Numbered from the stretch's first letter, positions 1 through 12,530 are shown. The stretch is 64,000 nt of DNA from an uncultured Pelagibacteraceae bacterium (GCA_902578305.1 CACHCK010000003.1:66492-130491), one strand, 5' to 3'. Numbers and translations: made by a program. Notes: a model not told the origin generated them from the letters alone.

Positions 1-2
1 AT

Positions 3-1328
3 CGTATAAAAAGAATACAAACTTTAGTTGAGGAAAATATAGATGCTTTTCATGACGCGTTAAGATCTGATTTTGGCACACGACATGAGCAGTTAAGCCT
101 AATGGCTGACACAATGCCTGTAATTAATAATGCAAAAGACGCCTTAAAAAATATTAAAAGATGGGTTAAGCCTGATAAGCGAAAACCTAACTTCCCATTG
201 GGATTACTTGGTGCAAAAGCTTATGTTCAATTCCAGCCTTATGGAGTAGTTGGTGTTATTTCTCCTTGGAACTTCCCACTAACTCTAAGTATTGCGCCTT
301 TAATAGAAATATTTGCGGCTGGAAATAATGCAATGATGAAACTCTCAGAGTTCGTTCCAGCAACCTCTGAATTAAGTGAAGAACTTATTAATAAATTTTT
401 TAGTGATGAAGAAGTTGTTATAGTAAATGGAGGTCCTCAAACCTCGCAAGATTTTGCAGGATTACCATTTGATCATCTGCTTTTCACAGGATCAACAAAT
501 GTAGCTAAAAAAGTTGCATCTGAGGCAGCATCAAATTTAGTACCGCTTACTCTTGAATTAGGTGGCAAGTCACCAGTAATAGTTGGTCCAAATGCCAAAA
601 TGAAAAAAAGTGTTGATAAGATAATGATGGGAAAGCTCTTAAATGGAGGACAAATTTGCATATCACCTGATTATGTAATGGTTCCTGAAGGGCAAACAGA
701 TGAATTTGTTGATCATGCAAAATCTCATGTTAGTGAAAATTATCCAACGATAAAAAATAATCCAGATTATACATCCATAATTCATTTGAATCACTACGAG
801 AGACTTCGTGAATTAGTAAAAGATGCTGAGTCAAAGGGAGCTACTATTGTAGAAATAAACCCTGCAAACGAAGACCTTTCGCAACAAGAGCACCATAAAA
901 TATTACCTACTTTAGTTTTAAATCCAACGGATGATATGAAGATTATGCAAGAAGAAATATTTGGACCTTTATTGCCAGTAAAAACATACAAAAGCTTTAA
1001 TGAAACAATAGAGTTCATAAATAAGAACCCTAAAGCGCTTGCAATATATTATTTTGGCGATGACAAAAAAGAAATTGATACTGTGTTAAACAATACTTCA
1101 TCTGGTCAAGCGGTTATAAACGATGTCTTATTCCAATTTTCTATGCATGATCTACCTTTTGGAGGGGTTGGTCCTAGTGGAATGGGCTCTTATCATGGTT
1201 ACGATGGCTTTAAGAACTTTAGTCATAAGAGATCAGTTCTGAAGGGTCAAAATATCTTAGATGCGGGTAAGATGATTACAGCTCCATTTACTGAATCTAC
1301 CGAAAAAAATATAAAAAGGTTATCTTAG
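3..1328 (+). CDS. Aldehyde dehydrogenase, coniferyl/fatty-aldehyde (CalB-like) family; 5' end lies outside the window
   Basis: Frame is open from position 3 (RIKRIQTLVEENIDAFHDALRSDFG...), so the track start at 102 is not the true start; motifs FTGST, ELGGKSP, catalytic Cys in GQICISPDY, EEIFGP, PFGGVGPSGMG. Confidence 0.88.
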   Translation, partial: RIKRIQTLVEENIDAFHDALRSDFGTRHEQLSLMADTMPVINNAKDALKNIKRWVKPDKRKPNFPLGLLGAKAYVQFQPYGVVGVISPWNFPLTLSIAPLIEIFAAGNNAMMKLSEFVPATSELSEELINKFFSDEEVVIVNGGPQTSQDFAGLPFDHLLFTGSTNVAKKVASEAASNLVPLTLELGGKSPVIVGPNAKMKKSVDKIMMGKLLNGGQICISPDYVMVPEGQTDEFVDHAKSHVSENYPTIKNNPDYTSIIHLNHYERLRELVKDAESKGATIVEINPANEDLSQQEHHKILPTLVLNPTDDMKIMQEEIFGPLLPVKTYKSFNETIEFINKNPKALAIYYFGDDKKEIDTVLNNTSSGQAVINDVLFQFSMHDLPFGGVGPSGMGSYHGYDGFKNFSHKRSVLKGQNILDAGKMITAPFTESTEKNIKRLS

Positions 1329-3322
1329 AGAATACTCTCAGCTGCTATTTTTTTTGAGTTTTCGACAATAAACTTAAATCTCAACTCAGGTTTTTTGCCC
1401 ATTAAAGAATCTACAGATTTATGAGTTTTCTTTTTGTCTTTTGATGCAATTTGAACTTTTAATAAGGTTCTATTTTCCTGCGACATAGTTGTTTCTTTCA
1501 ATTGAGCAGGCATCATCTCACCTAATCCTTTAAATCTATTAATGGTAACGTCTGAATTTTTAAATTCTTTTTTTATTATTTCATCTTTATGCTTATCATT
1601 TACAGCGTAATACGTTTTAGCTCCTTTAGATATTTTGTATAATGGAGGCACGGATAAGTACAGATGCCCTTCATCAATTAGTTTTGGAAATTCTTTATAG
1701 AAGAATGCCATCAATAAGGTGGATATATGAGCACCGTCAACATCAGCATCTGTCATAATTATAATTTTTTCGTATCTAATATCTTTGCTATTAAATTTAT
1801 CTCCTCGCTTACATCCAATTGCTTGCATTAAATCAGTAATTTCTTGGTTTGCATTTATTTTATCTCTTCCAGCACTGATCACATTTAAAATCTTACCCCT
1901 TAAAGGTAAAATGGCCTGTGTTTGGCGATCTCTTGCTTGTTTTGCCGATCCACCAGCCGAGTCTCCTTCAACAAGAAAAATTTCAGTTCCTTTATTTCCA
2001 TCAATTGAACAATCAGCAAGTTTACCTGGTAAGGTTGTTTTTTTTCTTTTTATATTTTTTTCTATGATTTGATTTGACTTGGATTGCAGTCTTAACTGTG
2101 ATCGATTAAATGCGTATTGAAATAATTCTTCTGCAGACCTAGTTTTTTTTGTAAGCCATTGTTCAAATAGTTGTCGTGCTTTCATTTCAATTTTACGACC
2201 AGGCTCTATACTTGATAACTTTTCTTTTGTCTGACCTTGAAACTCAGGGTTTTCTATAAAAGCAGATAAGATTGATCCAGATGAACCAAAGAGATCTTCT
2301 TGATTAATTTGAGATGATTTTTTTTCGTATTTAATTTTTGAAAAATCTTTAAATGCCTTATAAATTCCTGACTTGAAACCGCTTTCATGAGTACCGCCCA
2401 ATGGGGTTTTAATAGTGTTACAATAAGATTCATTTATAGGTTCCATCACATCAAACCAATTTATAATTCCCTCAATTTTACCACTATCAACATCTATCTC
2501 AGTGTTGAAATAAAATGGATCTTCAAAAATAGGGTCATTGGGCGTACAAAGATTATTTAAATAATCTTTAATTCCATCGGAGTAATGTAGTTTATCTGAT
2601 AATGGAATATTTTTTTTGGCGGTTGCCTTACTGCATGACCAATGAATTTCAACATCTGGTATAAGATAGGCTTTAGCTTTTGCCATATTATATATAATTG
2701 AAGCATCAAATTCTATTTCTTTGCCAAAAATTTCTGGGTCCGGTGAAAATACTATTTTTGTACCCTTTTTAAGAGGACCTTTTGCGGATGCTTTTAATTT
2801 ATTTTTAGGAGAACCTTGACTATAAGTTTGTACAAAATATTTTTTATCTCTTGCAATTTCAAGAGTAAGTTTTTTAGATAGCGCGTTTACAACAGAAATT
2901 CCAACGCCATGCAAACCGCCAGAAGTTTTGTAATTATTTTTTGAAAACTTGCCCCCAGAATGTAGTGTTGTCATAATGACTTCAACTGCAGGTATTTTAA
3001 ATTTTGGATGCTTATCAACAGGAATACCTCGCCCATTATCAGAGATTTCAATCGTGTCCTGGGAAACAAGCTTAATTTCTACCTTATTTGCAAAACCAGC
3101 AACAACTTCATCCATTGAATTATCAAGTACCTCGCTTACCAGGTGATGCATTGCCATTATATCTGTTCCCCCAATATACATTCCGGGTCGCTTTCTAACC
3201 GGTTCTAAACCTTCAAGGACTTCAATATCTTTTGCGGTGTAAGATGTGTTTGAATTTTTTATTGTCTTTTTGGATGAACTCTTCTTTTTAATTGATTTAT
3301 TTTTCTTTGATTTCTTTCTCAT
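1325..3322 (-). CDS. parE: DNA topoisomerase IV subunit B
   Basis: LEPVRKRPGMYIG, EVLDNSMDE, GGLHGVGISVVNALS, LVEGDSAGGSAKQAR, IMTDADVDGAHI, RFKGLGEM; ends KPELRFKFI without the GyrB insertion. ATG at 3322 preferred over the TTG at 3331. Confidence 0.93.
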   Translation of the reverse strand: MRKKSKKNKSIKKKSSSKKTIKNSNTSYTAKDIEVLEGLEPVRKRPGMYIGGTDIMAMHHLVSEVLDNSMDEVVAGFANKVEIKLVSQDTIEISDNGRGIPVDKHPKFKIPAVEVIMTTLHSGGKFSKNNYKTSGGLHGVGISVVNALSKKLTLEIARDKKYFVQTYSQGSPKNKLKASAKGPLKKGTKIVFSPDPEIFGKEIEFDASIIYNMAKAKAYLIPDVEIHWSCSKATAKKNIPLSDKLHYSDGIKDYLNNLCTPNDPIFEDPFYFNTEIDVDSGKIEGIINWFDVMEPINESYCNTIKTPLGGTHESGFKSGIYKAFKDFSKIKYEKKSSQINQEDLFGSSGSILSAFIENPEFQGQTKEKLSSIEPGRKIEMKARQLFEQWLTKKTRSAEELFQYAFNRSQLRLQSKSNQIIEKNIKRKKTTLPGKLADCSIDGNKGTEIFLVEGDSAGGSAKQARDRQTQAILPLRGKILNVISAGRDKINANQEITDLMQAIGCKRGDKFNSKDIRYEKIIIMTDADVDGAHISTLLMAFFYKEFPKLIDEGHLYLSVPPLYKISKGAKTYYAVNDKHKDEIIKKEFKNSDVTINRFKGLGEMMPAQLKETTMSQENRTLLKVQIASKDKKKTHKSVDSLMGKKPELRFKFIVENSKKIAAESIL

Positions 3323-3406
3323 AACAAACAATACAACTAATAATAGATTCTTTACATTGTGTAATATTTATTTACTCTAACAGCATGAATTTATTAGGAA
3401 TTTAGT

Positions 3407-5044
3407 ATGCCGGTTATTGAATCAAAAATAATGATTAATTCAGAGTCCTTCAAAAAAAATCAGGAGGACCATCAAAAGCTTATTGATGAAATTAGAACTT
3501 TAGAACAAAAAATAGCAGATAATTCCGCTAGGTCTAAGGCTAAGTTTGATAAAAGAGGACAGTTGCTGCCTCGTGAAAGATTAAAAAGGCTATTAGATCC
3601 AGGTAGTTTTTGGCTTCCATTATCCACCCTTGCTGGTTACAAGATTGGCGATGATGATGGCGATAAAAACATTGGATGGGGAAACTCTATTAGCGGTATT
3701 GGTTATGTTGCAGGCGTTCGTTGCATGATTGGTGTTTCAGATGCGGGCATTAAAGGGGGAAGTGCATCTGCGATGGGCACTGAAAAGGCGTTAAGAGGTG
3801 CTCAAATAATTTTTGAAAATAAATTACCTTTTATACAGTTAATAGAAAGCGCTGGTGCAAATCTACTGAGACAGACCGATATGTTTATTAAAGGTGGCAG
3901 AAGTTTTGCCAATCTTTCTAAAATGTCAGCAATGGGAATCCCGACAATTGGCGTAGTTCACGGCTCATCAACTGCAGGCGGCGCTTACCAGACAGGCTTA
4001 TCGGATTATATAATTGTAGTTAAAGAAAGATCAAAAATATTTCTAGCAGGCCCTCCTTTATTAAGAGCATCGCTTGGCGAGATTGCTACTGACGAAGAAA
4101 TTGGTGGAGCAGATTTACATTTTGCAGTCTCCGGACTTGCTGAATATATGGCAAACGATGATGCTCATGCAATTGAGATTGCAAGAGATGTCATGAAGAA
4201 TATTGGATGGAATAATGATTTCATTTCTACTCAAAAGTCTGAGTATGATGAGCCCGTTTACTCACCTGATGAGTTAACAGGGGTTGTTCCAGTTGATTAT
4301 AAAACTCCGTATGATTGCCGGGAAGTGATTGCAAGAATTGTTGATGGTTCAGATTTTTTAGAGTTTAAAGAAGGCTGGGGTAAAACCCTCATAACAGGAC
4401 ATGCAACTATTCAAGGTTATAAAGTTGGAATTTTAGGGAACAACGGACCGATATTTTCTGAAAGTGCTAATAAAGCTACTCAATTCATACAAATTTGTTC
4501 TCAATCAAATACGCCGCTAATTTTTCTTCAAAATATAACCGGCTTTATGGTGGGTACTAAAGAGGAAGCAAAAGGAATGATAAGACACGGATCAAAGATG
4601 ATACAGGCGGTTACTAATTGCACCGTTCCTAAAATAACACTTAGGATTGGAGCCTCTTTTGGTGCGGGAGAATATGGAATGGCGGGAAGATCTTATGATC
4701 CTAGATTTTTATTCTCATGGCCTAATGCAAAAATGAGTGTGATGGGTGGGGAACAGGCCGCTAGAACAATGGCTCAAGTTGCTCTTGAGGGCGCTGAACG
4801 AAAAGGTCAAGATCCCAAAAAAATATATGGAGAGAACCTTGAAATGCTTGAAGGTATGAAACAAAAAATAATCGATCAGTACCGTGAGGAAGGTGAAGCA
4901 ATATTTTGCTCAGCGAGATTATGGGATGACGGAATTATTGATCCAAAGGATACAAGAAAGATTTTAGGTGAATGCTTAAATATTATCAGCGACGGCGATA
5001 AGAGAGAGTTAAAACCAAATACTTTTGGCGTTGCAAGAATGTAA
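3407..5044 (+). CDS. atuC: Acyl-CoA carboxylase carboxyltransferase subunit, geranyl-CoA carboxylase (AtuC)-like
   Basis: Carboxyl_trans motifs GQLLPRERL, ESAGANL, STAGGAYQTGLSD (AtuC-type rather than the LiuB GGAYVPAM), SARLWDDGIIDP, ending FGVARM; AGGA SD upstream; adjacent atuD-like gene. Confidence 0.72.
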   Translation: MPVIESKIMINSESFKKNQEDHQKLIDEIRTLEQKIADNSARSKAKFDKRGQLLPRERLKRLLDPGSFWLPLSTLAGYKIGDDDGDKNIGWGNSISGIGYVAGVRCMIGVSDAGIKGGSASAMGTEKALRGAQIIFENKLPFIQLIESAGANLLRQTDMFIKGGRSFANLSKMSAMGIPTIGVVHGSSTAGGAYQTGLSDYIIVVKERSKIFLAGPPLLRASLGEIATDEEIGGADLHFAVSGLAEYMANDDAHAIEIARDVMKNIGWNNDFISTQKSEYDEPVYSPDELTGVVPVDYKTPYDCREVIARIVDGSDFLEFKEGWGKTLITGHATIQGYKVGILGNNGPIFSESANKATQFIQICSQSNTPLIFLQNITGFMVGTKEEAKGMIRHGSKMIQAVTNCTVPKITLRIGASFGAGEYGMAGRSYDPRFLFSWPNAKMSVMGGEQAARTMAQVALEGAERKGQDPKKIYGENLEMLEGMKQKIIDQYREEGEAIFCSARLWDDGIIDPKDTRKILGECLNIISDGDKRELKPNTFGVARM

Positions 5045-6220
5045 TTAATTTTTTCCTGGAAGAATATCAAGATATTTTGAAATAATGCCTAGCATTACTT
5101 CATCTGATCCACCGCCAATTGAACCTAAACGTCCATCTCTATACGCTCTTGAAATAGGTGACTCATCCATATAACCCATTCCACCCCAATATTGTAAGCA
5201 TTCGTCGTTAACTTTTCTAGAAAGTCGTGTGGCCTTTAGCTTTGACATTGAAGCCAATTTTGTACAATCACCACCATTTACATGTATCTCAATTCCTTTC
5301 CATGTAAGTGCTTTTAAAGCTTCAACCTCCGTCATCAGCTCGGAAAGTTTGTAATGAACAATCTGATTGTCAAGAATAGGCTTACCAAATGTCTTTCTTT
5401 GTCTTGTATAATTAATGGTCTCATTAATAGCTAATTCGCAGCCAGTATAGCCAGCAATAGCTGCATAAAGTCTTTCTTCTTGAAACTGCATCATTTGATA
5501 AATAAAGCCTTTACCTTCTTCTCCGACTAAATTTTTCTGCGGCACTCTTACATCATCAAAAAATATTTCAGCAGTATCAGACGAATGCATGCCCATTTTT
5601 TTTAATTTACGATTAATCGTGACACCTTTTGCTCTTTTGCCATTTTCCTTAAGAGGTACACATATAAGAGATTTGTTTAAATGTTTATTCTTATGGTCTG
5701 TTTCAGTGTTAGCAAGCATACACATCCAGTCTGCTTGAGTACCATTTGTAATCCACATCTTTGATCCATTGATTACGTAATCATCGCCATCCTTAACTGC
5801 ATGAGTCTTAATGGCAGCCACATCAGAACCAGCACTTGGTTCAGAAACACCAAGGCAAGAAACAAGATCTCCAGTAATAGACGGTTTTAAAAATTCATTG
5901 CATATCTCTTCACTGCCGAAGCGCGCCAATGCCGGAGTTGACATATCTGTTTGTACACCAATAGCCATTGGAACACCGCCGCATTTAATATGTGCCAATG
6001 CCTCATTAAGAACAGCTCCGTATGAATAGTCTAATCCAGATCCACCGTACTTTTCAGGTTTAGTTACTCCAAGAAATCCTTGATCACCTAATTTTTTGAA
6101 TAGCTCATGAGCTGGAAAAATTTCATTTTCTTCCCACTCGTCAACATAAGGGTTAATTTCATCTTCAACGAATTTAAGAGCTGATCTCTTTAATTCTTCG
6201 TGTTCTGTTGTTAATTCCAT
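5045..6220 (-). CDS. atuD: Acyl-CoA dehydrogenase, citronellyl-CoA dehydrogenase (AtuD)-like
   Basis: CGGVPMAIGVQTDMSTPALARFGS, GVSEPSAGSDVA, INGSKMWITNG, QFQEERL, CLQYWGGMGYM, SIGGGSDEVM; closely matches AtuD as I recall it. Confidence 0.75.
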   Translation of the reverse strand: MELTTEHEELKRSALKFVEDEINPYVDEWEENEIFPAHELFKKLGDQGFLGVTKPEKYGGSGLDYSYGAVLNEALAHIKCGGVPMAIGVQTDMSTPALARFGSEEICNEFLKPSITGDLVSCLGVSEPSAGSDVAAIKTHAVKDGDDYVINGSKMWITNGTQADWMCMLANTETDHKNKHLNKSLICVPLKENGKRAKGVTINRKLKKMGMHSSDTAEIFFDDVRVPQKNLVGEEGKGFIYQMMQFQEERLYAAIAGYTGCELAINETINYTRQRKTFGKPILDNQIVHYKLSELMTEVEALKALTWKGIEIHVNGGDCTKLASMSKLKATRLSRKVNDECLQYWGGMGYMDESPISRAYRDGRLGSIGGGSDEVMLGIISKYLDILPGKN

Positions 6221-6276
6221 TTTAATATATATAGCATTTTATTTGCAAAGGTCACCCTTTAGAATTCAACTATTTG

Positions 6277-7686
6277 TCAAACACTAAAATAGTTTTTGTA
6301 TTCAATAGGATGAGGAGAATGTTCTAGATCATATACATCTTCCATTTTCAGGTCTACATATGCATCAATTTGGTCATCAGTAAAAACTCCACCTTCAGTT
6401 AAAAAAGCTCTATCTTCGTTAACCGCCTCAAGTGCCTCTCTAAGAGAGCCACAAACAGTTGGCAATTTTTTAACTTCTGCCTCAGGTAATTCATAAAGAT
6501 CTTCATCAGCAGCATTTCCTGGATCAATTTTATTTTTTATACCATCCATCCCCGCCATTAGCATTGCTGAAAATGCCAAATAAGGATTTGCTGAGGGATC
6601 TGGAAACCTTACTTCAACTCTTTTTCCTTTCGGATTATCTGAAACAGGTATACGACACGAGGCAGATCTGTTTCTTGCTGAGTATACAAGTATTACTGGG
6701 GCCTCAAACCCTGGTATCAGTCTCTTATAACTGTTTGTGCTAGCATTCGTAAACGCGTTAAGTGCCCTTCCATGTTTTATGATCCCACCAATGTAGTGCA
6801 ATGCCATCTCGGATAAGCCTGCATATTTATCTCCTGCAAATAGAGGTTTGCCATTTTTCCATATGGATTGGTGTGTATGCATTCCAGTTCCATTATCACC
6901 TTTAACTGGTTTAGGCATGAATGTAGCAGTTTTACCAAATGCATTAGCGACCATGTGTACACCATACTTATAAAGCTGCATAGCATCGCCCTGTTTAAGT
7001 AAAGTATCAAACTTCAGTCCCAATTCATGTTGACTTGGAGCAACTTCATGATGATGTTTTTCCATCTTCAGTCCTAAATTTTTTAATTCTTCAAGAAATT
7101 CTGTTCTTATATCTTGTGCGCTATCAACAGGCGGTACAGGAAAATATCCTCCTTTAACACCTGGTCTGTGTGCTAAGTTGCCACTTTCATAAGAGCGTCC
7201 AGAATTATATGGACCTTCAGTACTATCAATTTCAAACATTGATTTGTTCATATCAACTTGAAATTTTACATCATCAAATATAAAAAACTCTGCTTCTGGA
7301 CCCATATATATAGTATCGCCAATTCCACTTGCTTTGACATACTCTTCTGCTTTTCTTGCAGTTCCTCTTGGATCTCTCTCATATGGTTCCTTTGACACTG
7401 CATCGAGAACATCGCAAAATACAATTAATGTTGGTTGGGCTGTAAAAGGATCCATTACCGTTGTGGTTAAGTCCGGTTTGAGAACCATGTCTGACTCATT
7501 TATAGCTTTCCAGCCAGATATAGAGGATCCATCAAAGAAAACTCCGCTGTTTAGGAGATCATCGTCTACTGCTGTACCGTCCATCGTTAAATGTTGAAGT
7601 TTGCCTTTTGGATCAGTAAATCTCATATCAAGATACTTGACTTCACCATTTTTAAATTTTTTTAGTACTTCGTTTGCAGTACCCAT
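6277..7686 (-). CDS. glnA: Glutamine synthetase type I
   Basis: FDGSSI, GPEAEFF, KHHHEVA, FMPKPVKGDNGTGMH, NSYKRLIPGFEAP, RIEV-like RVEVRFPDP, adenylylation-site Tyr in DLYELP; 469 aa. Confidence 0.97.
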   Translation of the reverse strand: MGTANEVLKKFKNGEVKYLDMRFTDPKGKLQHLTMDGTAVDDDLLNSGVFFDGSSISGWKAINESDMVLKPDLTTTVMDPFTAQPTLIVFCDVLDAVSKEPYERDPRGTARKAEEYVKASGIGDTIYMGPEAEFFIFDDVKFQVDMNKSMFEIDSTEGPYNSGRSYESGNLAHRPGVKGGYFPVPPVDSAQDIRTEFLEELKNLGLKMEKHHHEVAPSQHELGLKFDTLLKQGDAMQLYKYGVHMVANAFGKTATFMPKPVKGDNGTGMHTHQSIWKNGKPLFAGDKYAGLSEMALHYIGGIIKHGRALNAFTNASTNSYKRLIPGFEAPVILVYSARNRSASCRIPVSDNPKGKRVEVRFPDPSANPYLAFSAMLMAGMDGIKNKIDPGNAADEDLYELPEAEVKKLPTVCGSLREALEAVNEDRAFLTEGGVFTDDQIDAYVDLKMEDVYDLEHSPHPIEYKNYFSV

Positions 7687-7707
7687 ATGATCCCCTAATT
7701 ATGGAAT

Positions 7708-8688
7708 TTATTTAGTCAAAGTCCCAACTATATGTGATACAATTTTGTATGGATCAGCATTCGATGCTGGCCTTCTATCTTCAAGATACCCATTCCAATT
7801 ATGTTCAACAGTATAAACTGGAATACGTATACTAGCACCTCTATCACTTACACCATATGAAAATTTATCGATACTTTGTGTCTCGTGAAGTCCAGTAAGC
7901 CTCATATTATTGTCAGATCCATAAGCTGCAATACCTTCTTCATGAACCTTTCCAAGTTTGTCGCACATTGATGTAAATAATTCTTCTGATCCAGAAGATC
8001 TCATTTGTTCATTAGAAAAATTAGTGTGCATACCAGAACCGTTCCAATCACCAGTTTTTGGTTTTGGGTGGAAGTTCACTCCAACGCCGTGTTCCTCAGC
8101 AGTTTTCATGAGTAAATATCGGCTTACCCATAAATCATCAGCTGCTTTAATACCTTTTCCAAAGCATTGATATTCCCATTGGCCAAGTGCAACTTCTGCA
8201 TTAGTTCCAGTAAGCGTAATCCCAAGATCTATACAAGCTTTTAGATGTGCATCTGATATGGCTCTACCAACAACATTGCCCGCTCCAACACCACAATAAA
8301 ATTCACCCTGTTCTCTTGGCGTGCCATCTTCCCAGCCAAGTGGTTCACCAGTTTTAGCGTCAGTTAAAAAGAATTCTTGTTCAAAACCAAACCACCATTC
8401 GTCGGAAACAACTTCCGCTGCCGCAGCTCTAAAGTTTGATGGATGAGTTGTATGGTCTGCAGCCTGTACCTGTGTCATTACTATATCGTGTCCATTTGGA
8501 TTAGAATAAGTTTGAACAGGAAGAAGAAGACAGTCTGAGCTTCCTCCCTCTGCTTGTTGAGTAGATGAACCATCAAATGACCAGTCCGGTGCTGATTTTT
8601 CTTCGGTTGCTTTTACTTTACTTCTCATAAAAGGCTCTGGTGTATAACCATCGAGCCATATGTATTCATAAGTTTTCATATCTGACAT
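7708..8688 (-). CDS. glnII: Glutamine synthetase type II
   Basis: EYIWLDG, WSFDGSST, GFEQEF, NAEVALGQWEYQ, GDWNGSGMHTNFS, RLTGLHET, DRGASIRIP, YLEDRRPASNADPY; 326 aa; GGGAGA SD. Confidence 0.92.
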   Translation of the reverse strand: MSDMKTYEYIWLDGYTPEPFMRSKVKATEEKSAPDWSFDGSSTQQAEGGSSDCLLLPVQTYSNPNGHDIVMTQVQAADHTTHPSNFRAAAAEVVSDEWWFGFEQEFFLTDAKTGEPLGWEDGTPREQGEFYCGVGAGNVVGRAISDAHLKACIDLGITLTGTNAEVALGQWEYQCFGKGIKAADDLWVSRYLLMKTAEEHGVGVNFHPKPKTGDWNGSGMHTNFSNEQMRSSGSEELFTSMCDKLGKVHEEGIAAYGSDNNMRLTGLHETQSIDKFSYGVSDRGASIRIPVYTVEHNWNGYLEDRRPASNADPYKIVSHIVGTLTK

Positions 8689-8709
8689 TAATTTCTCCCT
8701 GAATTAAGT

Positions 8710-9045
8710 TTATAATGCGTCCGAACCAGTCTCGCCTGTACGAATTCTCATAACTGTTTCAATGTTAGAAACAAATATTTTACCATCACCAATACGATTT
8801 GTGTTTGCTGAAGCCCTAATCGCTTCGACGGCCGTATCGACAAGATCATCTTGTAAGATTATTTCTAATCTAATTTTCGGAAGAAAATCACCATATTCAA
8901 CACCAGTGTTAACTTCAGTAAAACCTCTTTGTCTACCTAAGCCTTTGGCTTCAGATATAGTGATCCCACGCACCCCAACTTTTTCAAGTGCTTCTTTTAC
9001 ATCATCTATCTTAAATGGCTTTATGACAGCTTCGATTTTTTTCAT
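8710..9045 (-). CDS. glnB: P-II nitrogen regulatory protein with a divergent T-loop
   Basis: MKKIEAVIKPFK, GRQ37-39, Y51, LPK, IGDGKIF, RIRTGE; 111 aa; located upstream of glnA. Confidence 0.93.
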   Translation of the reverse strand: MKKIEAVIKPFKIDDVKEALEKVGVRGITISEAKGLGRQRGFTEVNTGVEYGDFLPKIRLEIILQDDLVDTAVEAIRASANTNRIGDGKIFVSNIETVMRIRTGETGSDAL

Positions 9046-9217: not shown

Positions 9218-10702
9218 ATGACTCAATACATCCTTAGTAATAAAGAAATGGCAAAGGCAGACCTTTTAACTATTGAATCTGGTATTTCTAGTTTGGATCT
9301 GATGTTTAACGCAGGAAAGAAAGTTTTCAACAATCTTCCTGTTCAAAGAGGTAAAAGGGCGCTCTTTATTTGTGGTCCGGGAAATAACGGTGGCGATGGC
9401 TATGTTGCAGCTGACCTTATTTTAAAGCAAGGTATGGAAATTGATATTTATTGCCCTATTAGTAAAGCCAAGGAAAGTAATGACAATTTACATTATAAAC
9501 AAAAACTTAATAAATCATTATTTGTTTCCAAAATAAGAAGTTTATCAAATTATTGTTATGTAGTAGACGCTTTATTTGGTACAGGGTTATCAAGGAGAAT
9601 GTCAGATGATTTAAGTTCTTTGGTTAGTAAAATTAATCAATCTAAATTAGATGTTTTCTCCGTAGATATTCCATCTGGCATTAATGGCGATACATCTGCT
9701 GTTCTTGGAGAAGCTTTTAAAGCTTCAAAAACAATTACTTTTTTTAATAAAAAAAAATGTCATTATTTGTACCCTGGAAAAAAATATTGTGGAGAAATAG
9801 TAGTTGAGGATATTGGAATTAAAAAAAACGTATTAGATCAAATTATGCCAAATATAAAAAAAAATGATCCATCATTATGGATTAAGAATTTTCCATTTCC
9901 AGTTTCAAGTGATCATAAATATTCAAGAGGAATGCTTGTAATTAATACTGGTCCTCAATTTCAAACTGGAGCAGCTCGATTAGCTGGTCGATCAGCTATG
10001 CGCGTTGGGGCAGGAGCAGTAACAATGGTCTGCGATGAAGAAACAGCAAAAATATTAGAACCACAAATCTCAGTTGAATTACTATCAGTGATAAAAGAAA
10101 AAAACGATTTTCAAAAACTTTTAAAAGACAAAAGAGTTTCAAGTGTCCTCATAGGTCCTGGAAATGGAGTAAATGATGAAACAAAAGCAAGAACTTTAAT
10201 GGCACTGGCTTTTGTGGATCATTGTGTAATTGATGCAGACGCAATTACATGTTTTGAAAATAATCCAAAAGAATTATTTATAGATACTTATCCGCATACA
10301 ATACTCACACCTCATGAAGGTGAATTTAAAAGATTATTTGGTGAAGGTATCGCGTTAATGGAAGATAAAGTACTCAAGTGTGTTGAGGCAGCCAAATTAG
10401 CAGGAAGTATAGTTTTACTCAAAGGCGCTGATACAGTTATTGCTGATCCTGAAGGGAATGTTGTAATAAATGCAAGCGAAGCTCCATATCTAGCAACCGC
10501 AGGATCAGGTGATGTTCTTGCTGGAATCATCGCTTCACTTGTTGGAGATAATAAGATGAATGCTTTTGATGCGACTTGCGCTGGAGCATATATTCACTCA
10601 AAACTTGGAGAAATGATAGGCCCCGGGCTAATTGCAGAGGATCTTATTGACAACATTCCCCTGATGATTAAAAAGCTGCATTCGTATGTTGAGGAAAATT
10701 AA
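9218..10702 (+). CDS. nnr: Bifunctional NAD(P)HX epimerase/dehydratase
   Basis: CGPGNNGGDG, VDALFGTG, VDIPSG (YjeF_N); HKYSRG, TGAARLA, IDADA, LTPHEGEF, LLKGADT, LATAGSGDVLAG. Confidence 0.93.
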   Translation: MTQYILSNKEMAKADLLTIESGISSLDLMFNAGKKVFNNLPVQRGKRALFICGPGNNGGDGYVAADLILKQGMEIDIYCPISKAKESNDNLHYKQKLNKSLFVSKIRSLSNYCYVVDALFGTGLSRRMSDDLSSLVSKINQSKLDVFSVDIPSGINGDTSAVLGEAFKASKTITFFNKKKCHYLYPGKKYCGEIVVEDIGIKKNVLDQIMPNIKKNDPSLWIKNFPFPVSSDHKYSRGMLVINTGPQFQTGAARLAGRSAMRVGAGAVTMVCDEETAKILEPQISVELLSVIKEKNDFQKLLKDKRVSSVLIGPGNGVNDETKARTLMALAFVDHCVIDADAITCFENNPKELFIDTYPHTILTPHEGEFKRLFGEGIALMEDKVLKCVEAAKLAGSIVLLKGADTVIADPEGNVVINASEAPYLATAGSGDVLAGIIASLVGDNKMNAFDATCAGAYIHSKLGEMIGPGLIAEDLIDNIPLMIKKLHSYVEEN

Positions 10703-12530
10703 TAAAATATCATTACTTCTAATTCTTTTTCTTACACTTTGTTTGAATATAAGTTTTGCAGAAGACCAGATATATACATTTAAATCCAAAAACACTGATT
10801 TCATTGGATCAGTAGCAAAAGAAAAAGATGGTTCAAAAACTATTTCTTTTGTCGGTATTCCCTTTGCAAAGCCTCCAGTTGATGACTTAAGATGGAAAGC
10901 TCCAAGAGAATTAGATCTGATGCCTGATACATTTGAAGCCACAACATTACCTAATAGGTGCATGCAAGTTAGTAATTTTTATGACTCAATGGATGGCATT
11001 GAGGGAGGTTCAATAATTGGATCTGAGGACTGTCTTTATTTAAATATTTATCTGTCAGAAAAGGCATACAATAGTAAAAAGAAATTGCCAGTCATGTTTT
11101 GGATACACGGAGGTGGAAATACGTGGGGTTATTCAGCTTCAAACTTGTATACTTCAGGTGATTTCATAATGGAACATGATGTAATTTTAGTCACAACAAA
11201 CTATAGATTAGGTCCTTTTGGATGGTTTGCCTTCAGCGGTCTAAATGAAGACTCAAATAATGAACTTGATCAAAGTGCAAATTTTGGAACTCTCGATATT
11301 ATAAAATCACTTGAGTGGGTTAATGAGAATATTTCAAATTTTAATGGTGACCCAAATAATATTACTATTTTCGGTGAGTCTGCTGGAGCTAGAAATGTAA
11401 TTTCACTTATGACTTCACCTTTAAGTGAAGACTTGTTTCAAAGAGGAATTTCTCAAAGCGGTTACCTTGGCTCAGACTCTTTAGACTTTGCAGAAAATAA
11501 TGAAAGAGCGGGATCAAAAAGTTTATTAAGACACTTAATCAAATCAAAGAACACATCAATATCTGATGAGGAGATTTCAAATTTCATGAGCAATCAGATG
11601 CTTTCTGTCGACCTTTTAAGAACTGCAGATGCAAACGATATTATATCATATTATAGGCCAAGACCTGATGCAGCTGGATTAATTGATGTCCCGAATGTAA
11701 TACCTGATGGAGTAGTAATTCCAAATAAGGGAATTTATGGAGCTTATAGAGATGGTGATATGTATGACAAACCTATGATATTTGGTTCGACACGAGATGA
11801 AGATAAACTGTTTATGTTTATGAACGATGAATATGTAAATAGGCCATTATCTTTTTTAAGTCCAATCTCGGAATATCTTGATTTATATGTAAAACCCAAA
11901 GATCCAAAGTATTATGATATCTATGCTAAATACATGGCAGAGTCATGGAAATATGGGGCAGTAGACCTACCTTCAGACTTTACATCAAATTACAAAAAAT
12001 CAAATGTATATGCTTATCGATTTGATTGGGATGAACAAAATGTCTATTTAGGTGTTGATTTGCCCAATCTACTAGGCGCTGCACATGGAATGGAGTTAGC
12101 ATTTATTTTTAAATCAGATGGTTTATTAGGTGAGAGCTCAGATGCGATAAATGACATAATGTATAATGAAAATAACAGGTCCACTGATTTAGAGCTCTCT
12201 ACAAAAATGGGACAATATTGGGTAAATTTTGCTTACGATGGTAATCCAAATAGCGCCCCTTATGATATGTCTACCGAGTGGAAACCATGGAATAAATTAA
12301 ATAACAACGAAAGGTTTATCGTATTTGACTCTGTTAACGATAAGGGCATTGCAATGTTTAATAATACTTTATCGGCAAATTCAATTCTTCAAGGAATATC
12401 CAGTGAGAGCATAACTGTTGATCAAAAGTGCAATATAATTGATAAAATGTTTAATAGAACAACTCTTACTGACGAGGAAGTGGATGAAATTTACAGAACC
12501 TTTATGAGCGGTAAGTGCACTAGAGCCTAA
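10686..12530 (+). CDS. Secreted type-B carboxylesterase/lipase family protein
   Basis: Signal peptide MLRKINKISLLLILFLTLCLNISFA; GIPFAKPP, EDCLYLNI, WIHGGGN, NYRLGPFG, nucleophile FGESAG, acid in STRDED, His in AAHGMEL. Confidence 0.88.
   Translation: MLRKINKISLLLILFLTLCLNISFAEDQIYTFKSKNTDFIGSVAKEKDGSKTISFVGIPFAKPPVDDLRWKAPRELDLMPDTFEATTLPNRCMQVSNFYDSMDGIEGGSIIGSEDCLYLNIYLSEKAYNSKKKLPVMFWIHGGGNTWGYSASNLYTSGDFIMEHDVILVTTNYRLGPFGWFAFSGLNEDSNNELDQSANFGTLDIIKSLEWVNENISNFNGDPNNITIFGESAGARNVISLMTSPLSEDLFQRGISQSGYLGSDSLDFAENNERAGSKSLLRHLIKSKNTSISDEEISNFMSNQMLSVDLLRTADANDIISYYRPRPDAAGLIDVPNVIPDGVVIPNKGIYGAYRDGDMYDKPMIFGSTRDEDKLFMFMNDEYVNRPLSFLSPISEYLDLYVKPKDPKYYDIYAKYMAESWKYGAVDLPSDFTSNYKKSNVYAYRFDWDEQNVYLGVDLPNLLGAAHGMELAFIFKSDGLLGESSDAINDIMYNENNRSTDLELSTKMGQYWVNFAYDGNPNSAPYDMSTEWKPWNKLNNNERFIVFDSVNDKGIAMFNNTLSANSILQGISSESITVDQKCNIIDKMFNRTTLTDEEVDEIYRTFMSGKCTRA

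Follow-up and report, generated by a model that had tools for sequence, protein, structure and literature searches.

A geranyl-CoA-carboxylase-type carboxyltransferase for which no cognate alpha subunit was found in a family of the SAR11 order

Biotin-dependent acyl-CoA carboxylases are thought to form two structural lineages, that of the propionyl-CoA and acetyl-CoA carboxylases (PCC/ACC) and that of the methylcrotonyl-CoA and geranyl-CoA carboxylases (MCC/GCC), in which each beta subunit works with its own alpha subunit. A long N-terminal helix is absent from PCC-beta; MCC-beta, which acts by gamma-carboxylation of an alpha,beta-unsaturated acyl-CoA, carries Phe191 after a 3-residue insertion, at a place where GCC-beta has Gly162 and no insertion (PMC4673880). 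In Pseudomonas, the GCC-beta is AtuC, from the operon atuABCDEFGH. We analyzed a stretch of DNA of 64,000 nucleotides, hereafter the window, deposited as from an uncultured Pelagibacteraceae bacterium (GCA_902578305.1, CACHCK010000003.1:66492-130491). There, the gene of an AtuC-type carboxyltransferase (CT; 3407..5044, + strand) converges with that of an AtuD-type acyl-CoA dehydrogenase (ACAD; 5045..6220, - strand). A sequence-only reading of the locus had proposed an orphan atuC/atuD-like pair belonging to a dispersed Atu pathway for acyclic isoprenoids. We find that a family of the SAR11 order keeps this GCC-type beta subunit under strong selection, while a GCC/MCC-type alpha subunit was not found and the docking and biotin sites of the beta subunit are changed. 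Our preferred reading, to which we give a probability of about 45%, is that the pair belongs to a dispersed, alpha-less Atu-like module in which AtuC borrows a non-cognate biotin carrier.

The CT gene starts with ATG and encodes 545 aa with a full-length Carboxyl_trans domain (PF01039, 408.8 bits). Among solved structures, its product best matches the GCC-beta of P. aeruginosa (PaGCC-beta, 5ikl_B, 625 bits), ahead of MCC-beta from P. aeruginosa (505 bits) and human (492 bits) and of PCC-beta (<=235 bits). The alignment to 5ikl_B runs from residue 2 and spans the region of the N-terminal helix, which is thereby predicted. Gly163 (3893..3895, + strand) aligns with Gly162 of GCC-beta and Phe191 of MCC-beta (alignment to 5ikl_B and 3u9r_B), and the MCC insertion ('reh') is absent before it, as throughout the family. 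In a 66-sequence sample of the MCC/GCC lineage, the insertion was found in 12/12 MCC-signature proteins, with Phe in 11/12, and in none of the non-MCC proteins; since Gly without insertion is common to every non-MCC clade sampled, it is necessary but not sufficient for the GCC type. The GGAYQ-x-GLSD motif pointed out by the sequence-only reading is indeed present as GGAYQTGLSD, to be compared with GGAYQPGLSD in PaGCC-beta and GGAYVPAMSD in MCC-beta, and in the same sample P-A-M-[SAC]-D occurs in every MCC-signature protein and G-[LM]-[SAC]-D in almost all the non-MCC ones.

We built a tree of 66 members of the MCC/GCC lineage and 2 outgroups, whose clades were anchored by scoring members against the PDB. 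The MCC-signature proteins form a single clade (support 97), and one of them reaches 879 bits against PaMCC-beta. The SAR11-type proteins make up a clade of their own (100), which lies inside the non-MCC clade (100), nested in a 14-member clade (99) together with operon-linked AtuC homologues, including proteins of TetR-CT-ACAD-ECH-alpha-AtuA operons (ECH, enoyl-CoA hydratase) and of the Hyphococcus TetR-CT-ACAD-alpha-BKACE operon. Scores, Gly163 and tree thus agree in grouping the window protein with AtuC rather than with MCC-beta or PccB, as had been anticipated, and its assignment by sequence to the GCC type is secure. An MCC-beta (LiuB) identity was rejected, the protein having neither a Phe191 equivalent nor the insertion and falling outside the MCC clade (support 97). 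The window protein keeps both of its Ala-Gly oxyanion holes. During this work, we also noted that a chain labelled 'Propionyl CoA carboxylase beta subunit' in the PDB (9tps/9tqc/9tqg) scores 891 bits to an alphaproteobacterial MCC-signature protein, more than PaMCC-beta does; by sequence, we assign this chain to the MCC lineage.

The ACAD gene, also with an ATG start, encodes a 391-aa citronellyl-CoA-dehydrogenase-like protein in which PF02771, PF02770 and PF00441 were all matched. Against solved structures, it scores 293 bits to a Geobacillus ACAD (2pg0), 250 bits to the human long-chain acyl-CoA dehydrogenase (LCAD) and 197 bits to isovaleryl-CoA dehydrogenase (IVD), and an IVD (LiuA) identity was rejected on these scores. 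In a residue alignment to 8w0t_A, Glu249 (5474..5476, - strand) corresponds to Glu261 of human LCAD, which we take to be the catalytic base, and a Gly stands at the position of Glu376 of the medium-chain enzyme (MCAD), so that by alignment the catalytic Glu is at the LCAD/IVD position, on helix G. The protein is a reciprocal best hit of the Hyphococcus ACAD encoded directly after AtuC (64.5-65% identity): searched against the whole window genome, the latter gave 547 bits to the window dehydrogenase and 213 to the next ACAD. ACADs in the same operon position of three other genomes (G480, G580 and G348) are 63% identical to it. The reciprocal best hit and the operon position together indicate that the pair is an orthologous atuC-atuD in which atuD has been inverted. 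Structure scores and operon thus both support the expected grouping with AtuD and not with IVD; the AtuD assignment is anchored on the operon-linked ACADs, not on the P. aeruginosa AtuD sequence. KEGG-orthology-based names at JGI, taken as leads only, point the same way: 'citronellyl-CoA dehydrogenase', given to AtuD homologues 87-89% identical, and 'geranyl-CoA carboxylase beta subunit'.

Within the genus, where synonymous divergence is unsaturated (dS 0.2-0.6), the ratio of nonsynonymous to synonymous substitutions (dN/dS) is 0.011 for atuC and 0.009-0.028 for atuD, to be compared with 0.046 for parE. Between genera, the two proteins of the pair are 73% and 87% identical and their frames are intact. 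Such low ratios indicate that both genes are under strong purifying selection and that the altered AtuC described below is in use. In two long metagenome contigs of sister lineages, atuD is fragmented (L022:11621-12797 and L028), as are many other genes in L028; it is intact in other contigs of the same lineage (L025-L027), and assembly or read errors are likelier than pseudogenes.

The window genome (1.24 Mb, 33% G+C, 94.6% complete) belongs to a Pelagibacterales family, here called f1, which is distinct from the large sister family f2, taken here as Pelagibacteraceae; at NCBI, homologues carry the name Pelagibacterales. All f1 genomes are multi-contig metagenome-assembled or single-cell genomes, and absences mean that a gene was not found in the genomes searched. 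The window genome contains only two biotin-carboxylase (BC) genes, encoding AccC and a 663-aa alpha subunit, PccA, the gene of which lies 3 nt downstream of a PccB-type beta gene, and only two biotinyl carriers, AccB (152 aa) and the C-terminus of PccA. This AccC and PccA pair, with nothing further, was recovered in all 11 f1 genomes searched (the window genome and 10 more, from 3 genera, including genomes 100%, 99% and 98% complete), in none of which was an AtuF-type alpha found, and a six-frame tblastn with two GCC-alpha proteins matched PccA and AccC only. Since AtuF was not found in 11 genomes of up to 100% completeness, its loss is a lineage trait, and a copy dispersed elsewhere does not account for it. 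For comparison, the alpha gene lies 2-4 kb from the MCC/GCC-lineage beta gene in 11/11 small alphaproteobacterial genomes with both coordinates listed. One row of the class-level tally comes from an unpublished genome (G502), on which no specific claim depends. The sequence-only reading had made its case depend on a partner biotin subunit: an AtuF-type one was not found, but PccA, of the PCC type, and AccB are available as possible partners, so that this expectation stands by half.

The distribution of these genes within the order is sharply divided. AtuC and AtuA were each found in 17/19 f1 genomes and PccA in 19/19, vs 0/281 f2 genomes for all three. No PccA-type alpha having been found in the 281 sampled f2 genomes, three of which are complete and carry AccC only, PccA is within the order specific to f1 (PccB was not searched in f2). 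A third CT, which is of the long-chain acyl-CoA carboxylase (LCC) type and, after AtuC, the second orphan beta-type subunit of the window genome, was found in genus g1, where a single alpha subunit, PccA, therefore faces three beta subunits, PccB, the AtuC type and the LCC type. This LCC-type protein (505 aa, G000 contig C26, L010:418-1935) is closest to the CT domain of a single-chain long-chain acyl-CoA carboxylase (4rcn, 558 bits), and is devoid of the BC and biotin-carboxyl-carrier-protein (BCCP) part. Its gene shows translational coupling with that of an arylmalonate-decarboxylase-like protein (L010:1932-2663); members of g1 share it (72-97% identity), and it was not recovered from g5 or g6. 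Outside the order, a 1.8-Mb, 100% complete alphaproteobacterial genome encodes a divergent MCC-lineage beta (G540:C29:8201-9712, L102; 44% identity) together with AccC as its single BC-domain gene, and this may be another alpha-less beta subunit. Another genome encodes a GCC-type beta (G516:C1:1044617-1046230, L058; 55-56% identity) without an AtuD-like or alpha gene within ~8 kb on either side, and has two further MCC/GCC-lineage members. Both loci are of high GC, which produces many spurious open reading frames (ORFs).

The AtuC of this lineage differs from its relatives at three motifs. The first is the alpha-docking motif following LLD, which reads G-x-P-F-L-E in relatives and GSFWLP in the window protein (residues 66-71; 3602..3619, + strand). 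All 80/80 SAR11-type proteins have GS[FY][WYF][LIM]P at this place, whereas 60 other MCC/GCC-lineage proteins have Pro (57/60), Phe (56/60) and Glu/Gln (53/60), and 38/40 of the nearest outsiders keep P-[FY]. In a cryo-EM study of the M. smegmatis MCC, the BT loop of the alpha subunit (W486, G491, W492, R493) contacts G53, S54 and F56 of AccD1 (preprint 10.64898/2026.03.23.713199); our placing of these contacts on the G-S-P-F motif relies on the likeness of the motifs and not on a structure. The second is GAGEY (residues 419-423; 4661..4675, + strand), where the Ala-Gly of the biotin oxyanion hole is kept and the next Asn has become Glu. In human MCC-beta, the biotin carbonyl is bound in an oxyanion hole made by the corresponding A447/G448 (preprint 10.1101/2024.04.30.591959). 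GAGEY is found in 80/80 SAR11-type proteins, and Asn in 58/60 other members of the lineage; Glu at this position was seen in 0/40 nearest outsiders, 0/60 class-level sequences and none of the representatives of 50%-identity clusters, a library of mostly unnamed fragments, used solely to sample diversity when counting motifs. The docking and GAGEY changes are thus specific to the SAR11-type AtuC lineage and seen in no other sampled lineage. The third change, Thr to Leu in the AATGE motif (ASLGE, residues 221-225; 4067..4081, + strand), is found in all SAR11-type proteins, the Thr being present in 58/60 other lineage members; it is not unique, as Leu or Ile also occurs in some distant representatives.

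Other candidate pathway genes lie elsewhere in the genome. The sequence-only reading had reported no atuA, atuE or atuF in the window; in the part covered here, its first 12 kb, we likewise found none, the AtuA and BC-domain matches of the genome all being on other contigs. AtuA, tentatively called the lyase of the pathway in PMC4847356, is encoded at C1:340392, where PF07287 (473 bits) and the AtuA ferredoxin-like domain were both matched. Behind it come genes for an ABC ATPase, a FadD11-like CoA ligase for fatty acids and two solute-binding proteins of the Peripla_BP_6 family (L009:9381-16172, that is G000 C1:340380-347171), and ahead of it genes for a flavin reductase and a fatty-acid desaturase; the cluster resembles a module for taking up and activating an organic acid. 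A LiuC/AtuE-like hydratase is encoded 7 kb downstream, and among the 6 ECH-family matches of the genome one is LiuC/AtuE-like, with 131.7 bits to gamma-carboxygeranoyl-CoA hydratase (cut-off 426). In another genus (G042), AtuA lies ~10 kb from atuC; in line with this is a fragment from a third lineage, on a contig prone to errors. An ACAD on contig C6 (G000 C6:10563-11750, L031:787-1974) shares 59.5% identity with the second ACAD in atuC-atuD-alpha-ACAD-ECH operons of the G480 type; it bears no specific NCBIfam name, lies near an ECH gene with one 282-aa ORF between, and may likewise have been part of the ancestral operon before its dispersal. A CitE/RipC-like acyl-CoA lyase of 326 aa, encoded between xerD and accA (G000 C4:76802-77782, L047:1459-2439), is the sole HpcH/CitE-family protein of the genome and falls below all NCBIfam cut-offs; it could possibly stand in for the missing 3-hydroxy-3-methylglutaryl-CoA (HMG-CoA) lyase. 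The dispersed Atu pathway that had been proposed is therefore only partly recovered: AtuA, a CoA ligase and a LiuC/AtuE-like hydratase are encoded on another contig, but AtuF and HMG-CoA lyase were not found and the AtuC motifs are altered, which together indicate that this is not simply a scattered canonical Atu pathway.

We propose that an atuC-atuD-(atuE)-atuF(-atuA) operon was inherited and then broken up in the ancestor of f1, with loss of atuF. As homology suggests, a beta-methyl-branched isoprenoid-type acid would be converted to its CoA ester, which the LCAD-like AtuD would oxidize to a 3-methyl-2-enoyl-CoA. The AtuC-type CT would then transfer CO2 from carboxybiotin to the gamma-methyl group, an ECH would add water, and AtuA, as the tentative lyase, would free acetate so that beta-oxidation could continue. 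The cognate AtuF having been lost, carboxybiotin would have to come from a non-cognate carrier, and AtuC may have been kept because it is able to obtain it from another one, most likely the BCCP domain of PccA and less likely AccB/AccC; PccA is the prime candidate owing to its perfect co-occurrence with AtuC in the order. The changes in the docking motif and beside the oxyanion hole would represent an adaptation to this foreign carrier. The retained large-pocket Gly, the LCAD/AtuD-type partner and the cluster of AtuA, ligase and transporter genes point to a 3-methyl-branched enoyl-CoA with a large acyl group as the probable substrate. Phytol or carotenoid-derived chains, already suggested by the sequence-only reading, are plausible and speculative. 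A literature search returned nothing relevant on geranyl-CoA carboxylase or acyclic terpene use in SAR11.

Several observations weigh against this proposal. PccA itself is of the PCC type, with 649 bits to the PCC-alpha of M. extorquens vs 426 to PaMCC-alpha, and it is without the hook Trp of the DGW(D/N)S motif common to the 4 aligned GCC-alpha proteins. The structural work on GCC states that the hook of the BT domain enforces the fidelity of the holoenzyme and that the PCC and MCC/GCC architectures differ (PMC4673880). The BT domain, 25-27% identical between f1 genera and equally poorly conserved among GCC-alpha proteins, is uninformative on dual docking. On the side of the pathway, no clear AtuE orthologue was found in the genome, the best hydratase match to the operon ECH being 30% over 194 residues, and HMG-CoA lyase was not found, the HMGL-like matches being two LeuA-sized genes only. 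As for the substrate, PaGCC-beta scores 625 bits with the window protein, 619 with a sister clade of unknown specificity and 800 with a different alphaproteobacterial clade, which is the closest to it, so that geranyl-CoA itself is not established as the substrate of AtuC. Finally, the Glu that replaces Asn next to the oxyanion hole for biotin may just as well be the mark of an enzyme that has given up biotin: the motif changes fit re-tuning to a foreign carrier and a biotin-free enzyme equally well, and the two are not separable computationally.

We also entertain, as a tentative proposition, a wider one in which this GCC-type beta subunit has escaped its own alpha in one of several ways: by forming a cross-lineage hybrid with a PCC-alpha, by using a free BCCP, or by dispensing with biotin, the chemistry then being done by the new Glu. 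Taken by itself, the last of these would make AtuC alone a decarboxylase or a dienolate isomerase acting on a gamma-carboxylated or 3-methyl-2-enoyl-CoA, with the new Glu replacing biotin in its acid/base role. It agrees with the fixation of GAGEY in the 80 SAR11-type proteins and in no other sampled lineage member, with the position of the Glu directly after the Ala-Gly that binds the biotin carbonyl, with the rewritten docking motif, with the fact that no cognate alpha was found, and with the purifying selection that shows the altered AtuC to be in use. It is a serious rival to our preferred reading, though we consider it the less probable of the two, because both oxyanion holes and the remaining active-site motifs are intact as in ordinary carboxyl transfer, AtuC still occurs together with AtuD and AtuA, as the usual sequence of pathway steps would have it, and its co-occurrence with PccA within Pelagibacterales is perfect. 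To our knowledge, moreover, the MCC/GCC lineage contains no biotin-independent enzyme.

The pair could instead serve mainly the breakdown of leucine and isovalerate, with a broad-pocket GCC-type beta standing in for a missing methylcrotonyl-CoA carboxylase. The genome has indeed no MCC-signature beta, its carboxyltransferases being PccB, the AtuC type, the LCC type and AccA/AccD only, and the GCC of Pseudomonas also accepts 3-methylcrotonyl-CoA; the 59.5% orthologue of the operons' second ACAD on contig C6 would fit such a role as well. This explanation appears improbable, as HMG-CoA lyase was not found, the paired ACAD is LCAD/AtuD-like (IVD 197 bits vs 293 for 2pg0 and 250 for LCAD), the large-pocket Gly is kept, and the problem of the missing alpha persists.

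Similarly, free AccB/AccC rather than PccA could be the partner, in a three-protein carboxylase like the archaeal AccC/AccB/PccB. Apart from PccA, the biotin machinery of the genome consists of AccB and AccC only, a free BCCP needs no docking of a BT domain and would thus fit the degraded docking motif, and the G540 alphaproteobacterium combines a divergent MCC-lineage beta with AccC only. We give this little credence, since AccB/AccC are also present in Pelagibacteraceae, where neither AtuC nor PccA was found, and AtuC co-occurs with PccA; we know of no precedent in the MCC/GCC lineage. Lastly, an AtuF missed by the assemblies (all f1 genomes are multi-contig, and the window genome is 94.6% complete) or a decaying relic is hardly conceivable and both readings were rejected, given the same two BC genes in 11 concordant genomes of 3 genera, 100%, 99% and 98% complete ones included, the lack of intergenic room or of any remnant at the locus, and dN/dS values of 0.01-0.03 with intact ORFs across genera, which exclude decay.

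At the locus itself, the stop codons of the two genes abut with zero spacer (TAA directly followed by TTA, 5042..5047, by direct sequence reading). Upstream lies parE (1325-3331, - strand; TIGR01055, 710.9 bits) and downstream glnA (6277-7686, - strand; TIGR00653, 647.6 bits), so that both ORFs, the abutting stops and the flanks are as the sequence-only reading had described them, and the pair is, as it had also held, an orphan with converging genes. In the operons of the nearest relatives, by comparison, the two genes share one orientation. A scan of 3200-6400 showed no terminator-like hairpin between the convergent genes, and 9 promoter-like sites vs 11.1 expected, from which no claim is possible. 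The window opens on a class-3-like aldehyde dehydrogenase gene (1..1328, + strand; PF00171, 261 bits), which starts 129 nt upstream of the window and, read in a longer stretch (L024), encodes 485 aa at full length. The order ECH-(ECH)-aldehyde dehydrogenase-parE-atuC-atuD-glnA is kept across other genera of the family; the aldehyde dehydrogenase is thus a conserved neighbor and possibly a feeder of the pathway, its membership being uncertain. Beyond glnA, we observed a gene for a glutamine synthetase of the GlnII type (7708-8688), whose 342.7 bits fall short of the cut-off of 500 and which is shortened or absent in some sister lineages. Next, within the block 6277-9045, comes a 111-aa ORF, the counterpart of P-II in sister contigs. 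A 614-aa carboxylesterase-family protein (10686-12530; PF00135, 304 bits) is encoded after an NAD(P)HX repair gene and is kept in sister lineages.

If the alpha of PCC is borrowed, this lineage would offer a natural counter-example to holoenzyme fidelity, with a sharing of subunits driven by genome streamlining; if the enzyme is biotin-free, it would represent a new activity for the carboxyltransferase fold. In either case, if true, abundant streamlined marine bacteria would run a single alpha subunit against two or three carboxyltransferases. The question also bears on the diet of oligotrophic bacteria, for which methyl-branched isoprenoid-type acids are plausible: such acids commonly arise in seawater when carotenoids and the side chains of chlorophyll are broken down. 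Expressing and assaying these genes is inexpensive.

Compared with known systems, the window protein shares lineage and fold with MCC-beta (LiuB/MccB; 3U9R, 8J4Z), but it has neither the Phe nor the insertion, and reads G-L-S-D instead of A-M-S-D. The actinobacterial acyl-CoA carboxylases, in which one alpha, AccA3, reportedly serves several betas, AccD4/5/6, resemble the situation proposed here in the economy of one alpha for several betas. The shared actinobacterial betas are all of the PCC/ACC lineage. In contrast, the f1 alpha would have to cross two structurally distinct lineages, against which the structural work on GCC argues. Pseudomonas AtuC (5IKL; atuABCDEFGH) is alike in the N-terminal helix region, in Gly162 without insertion, in the GGAYQxGLSD-type motif and in both Ala-Gly holes; the window gene differs in lying outside an atu operon, in that an AtuF partner was not found in f1, in its rewritten docking motif and in the change of Asn to Glu, and its product belongs to a different subclade from the one nearest PaGCC-beta (800 bits). 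The nearest homologues outside SAR11 are those of the alphaproteobacterial atu-like operons, at 58-60% identity for AtuC and 63-65% for AtuD. With the operon AtuD-like ACADs, the window AtuD shares, beyond this identity, the reciprocal best hit and the LCAD-type position of the Glu, and its gene differs from theirs by its inversion relative to atuC. These operons, of the types TetR-CT-ACAD-ECH-alpha-AtuA, CT-ACAD-alpha-BKACE and CT-ACAD-alpha-ACAD-ECH, are unlike the window pair in being co-oriented and TetR-regulated and in all having an alpha that bears the DGW(D/N)S hook, and it is such complete operons that likely represent the ancestral state.

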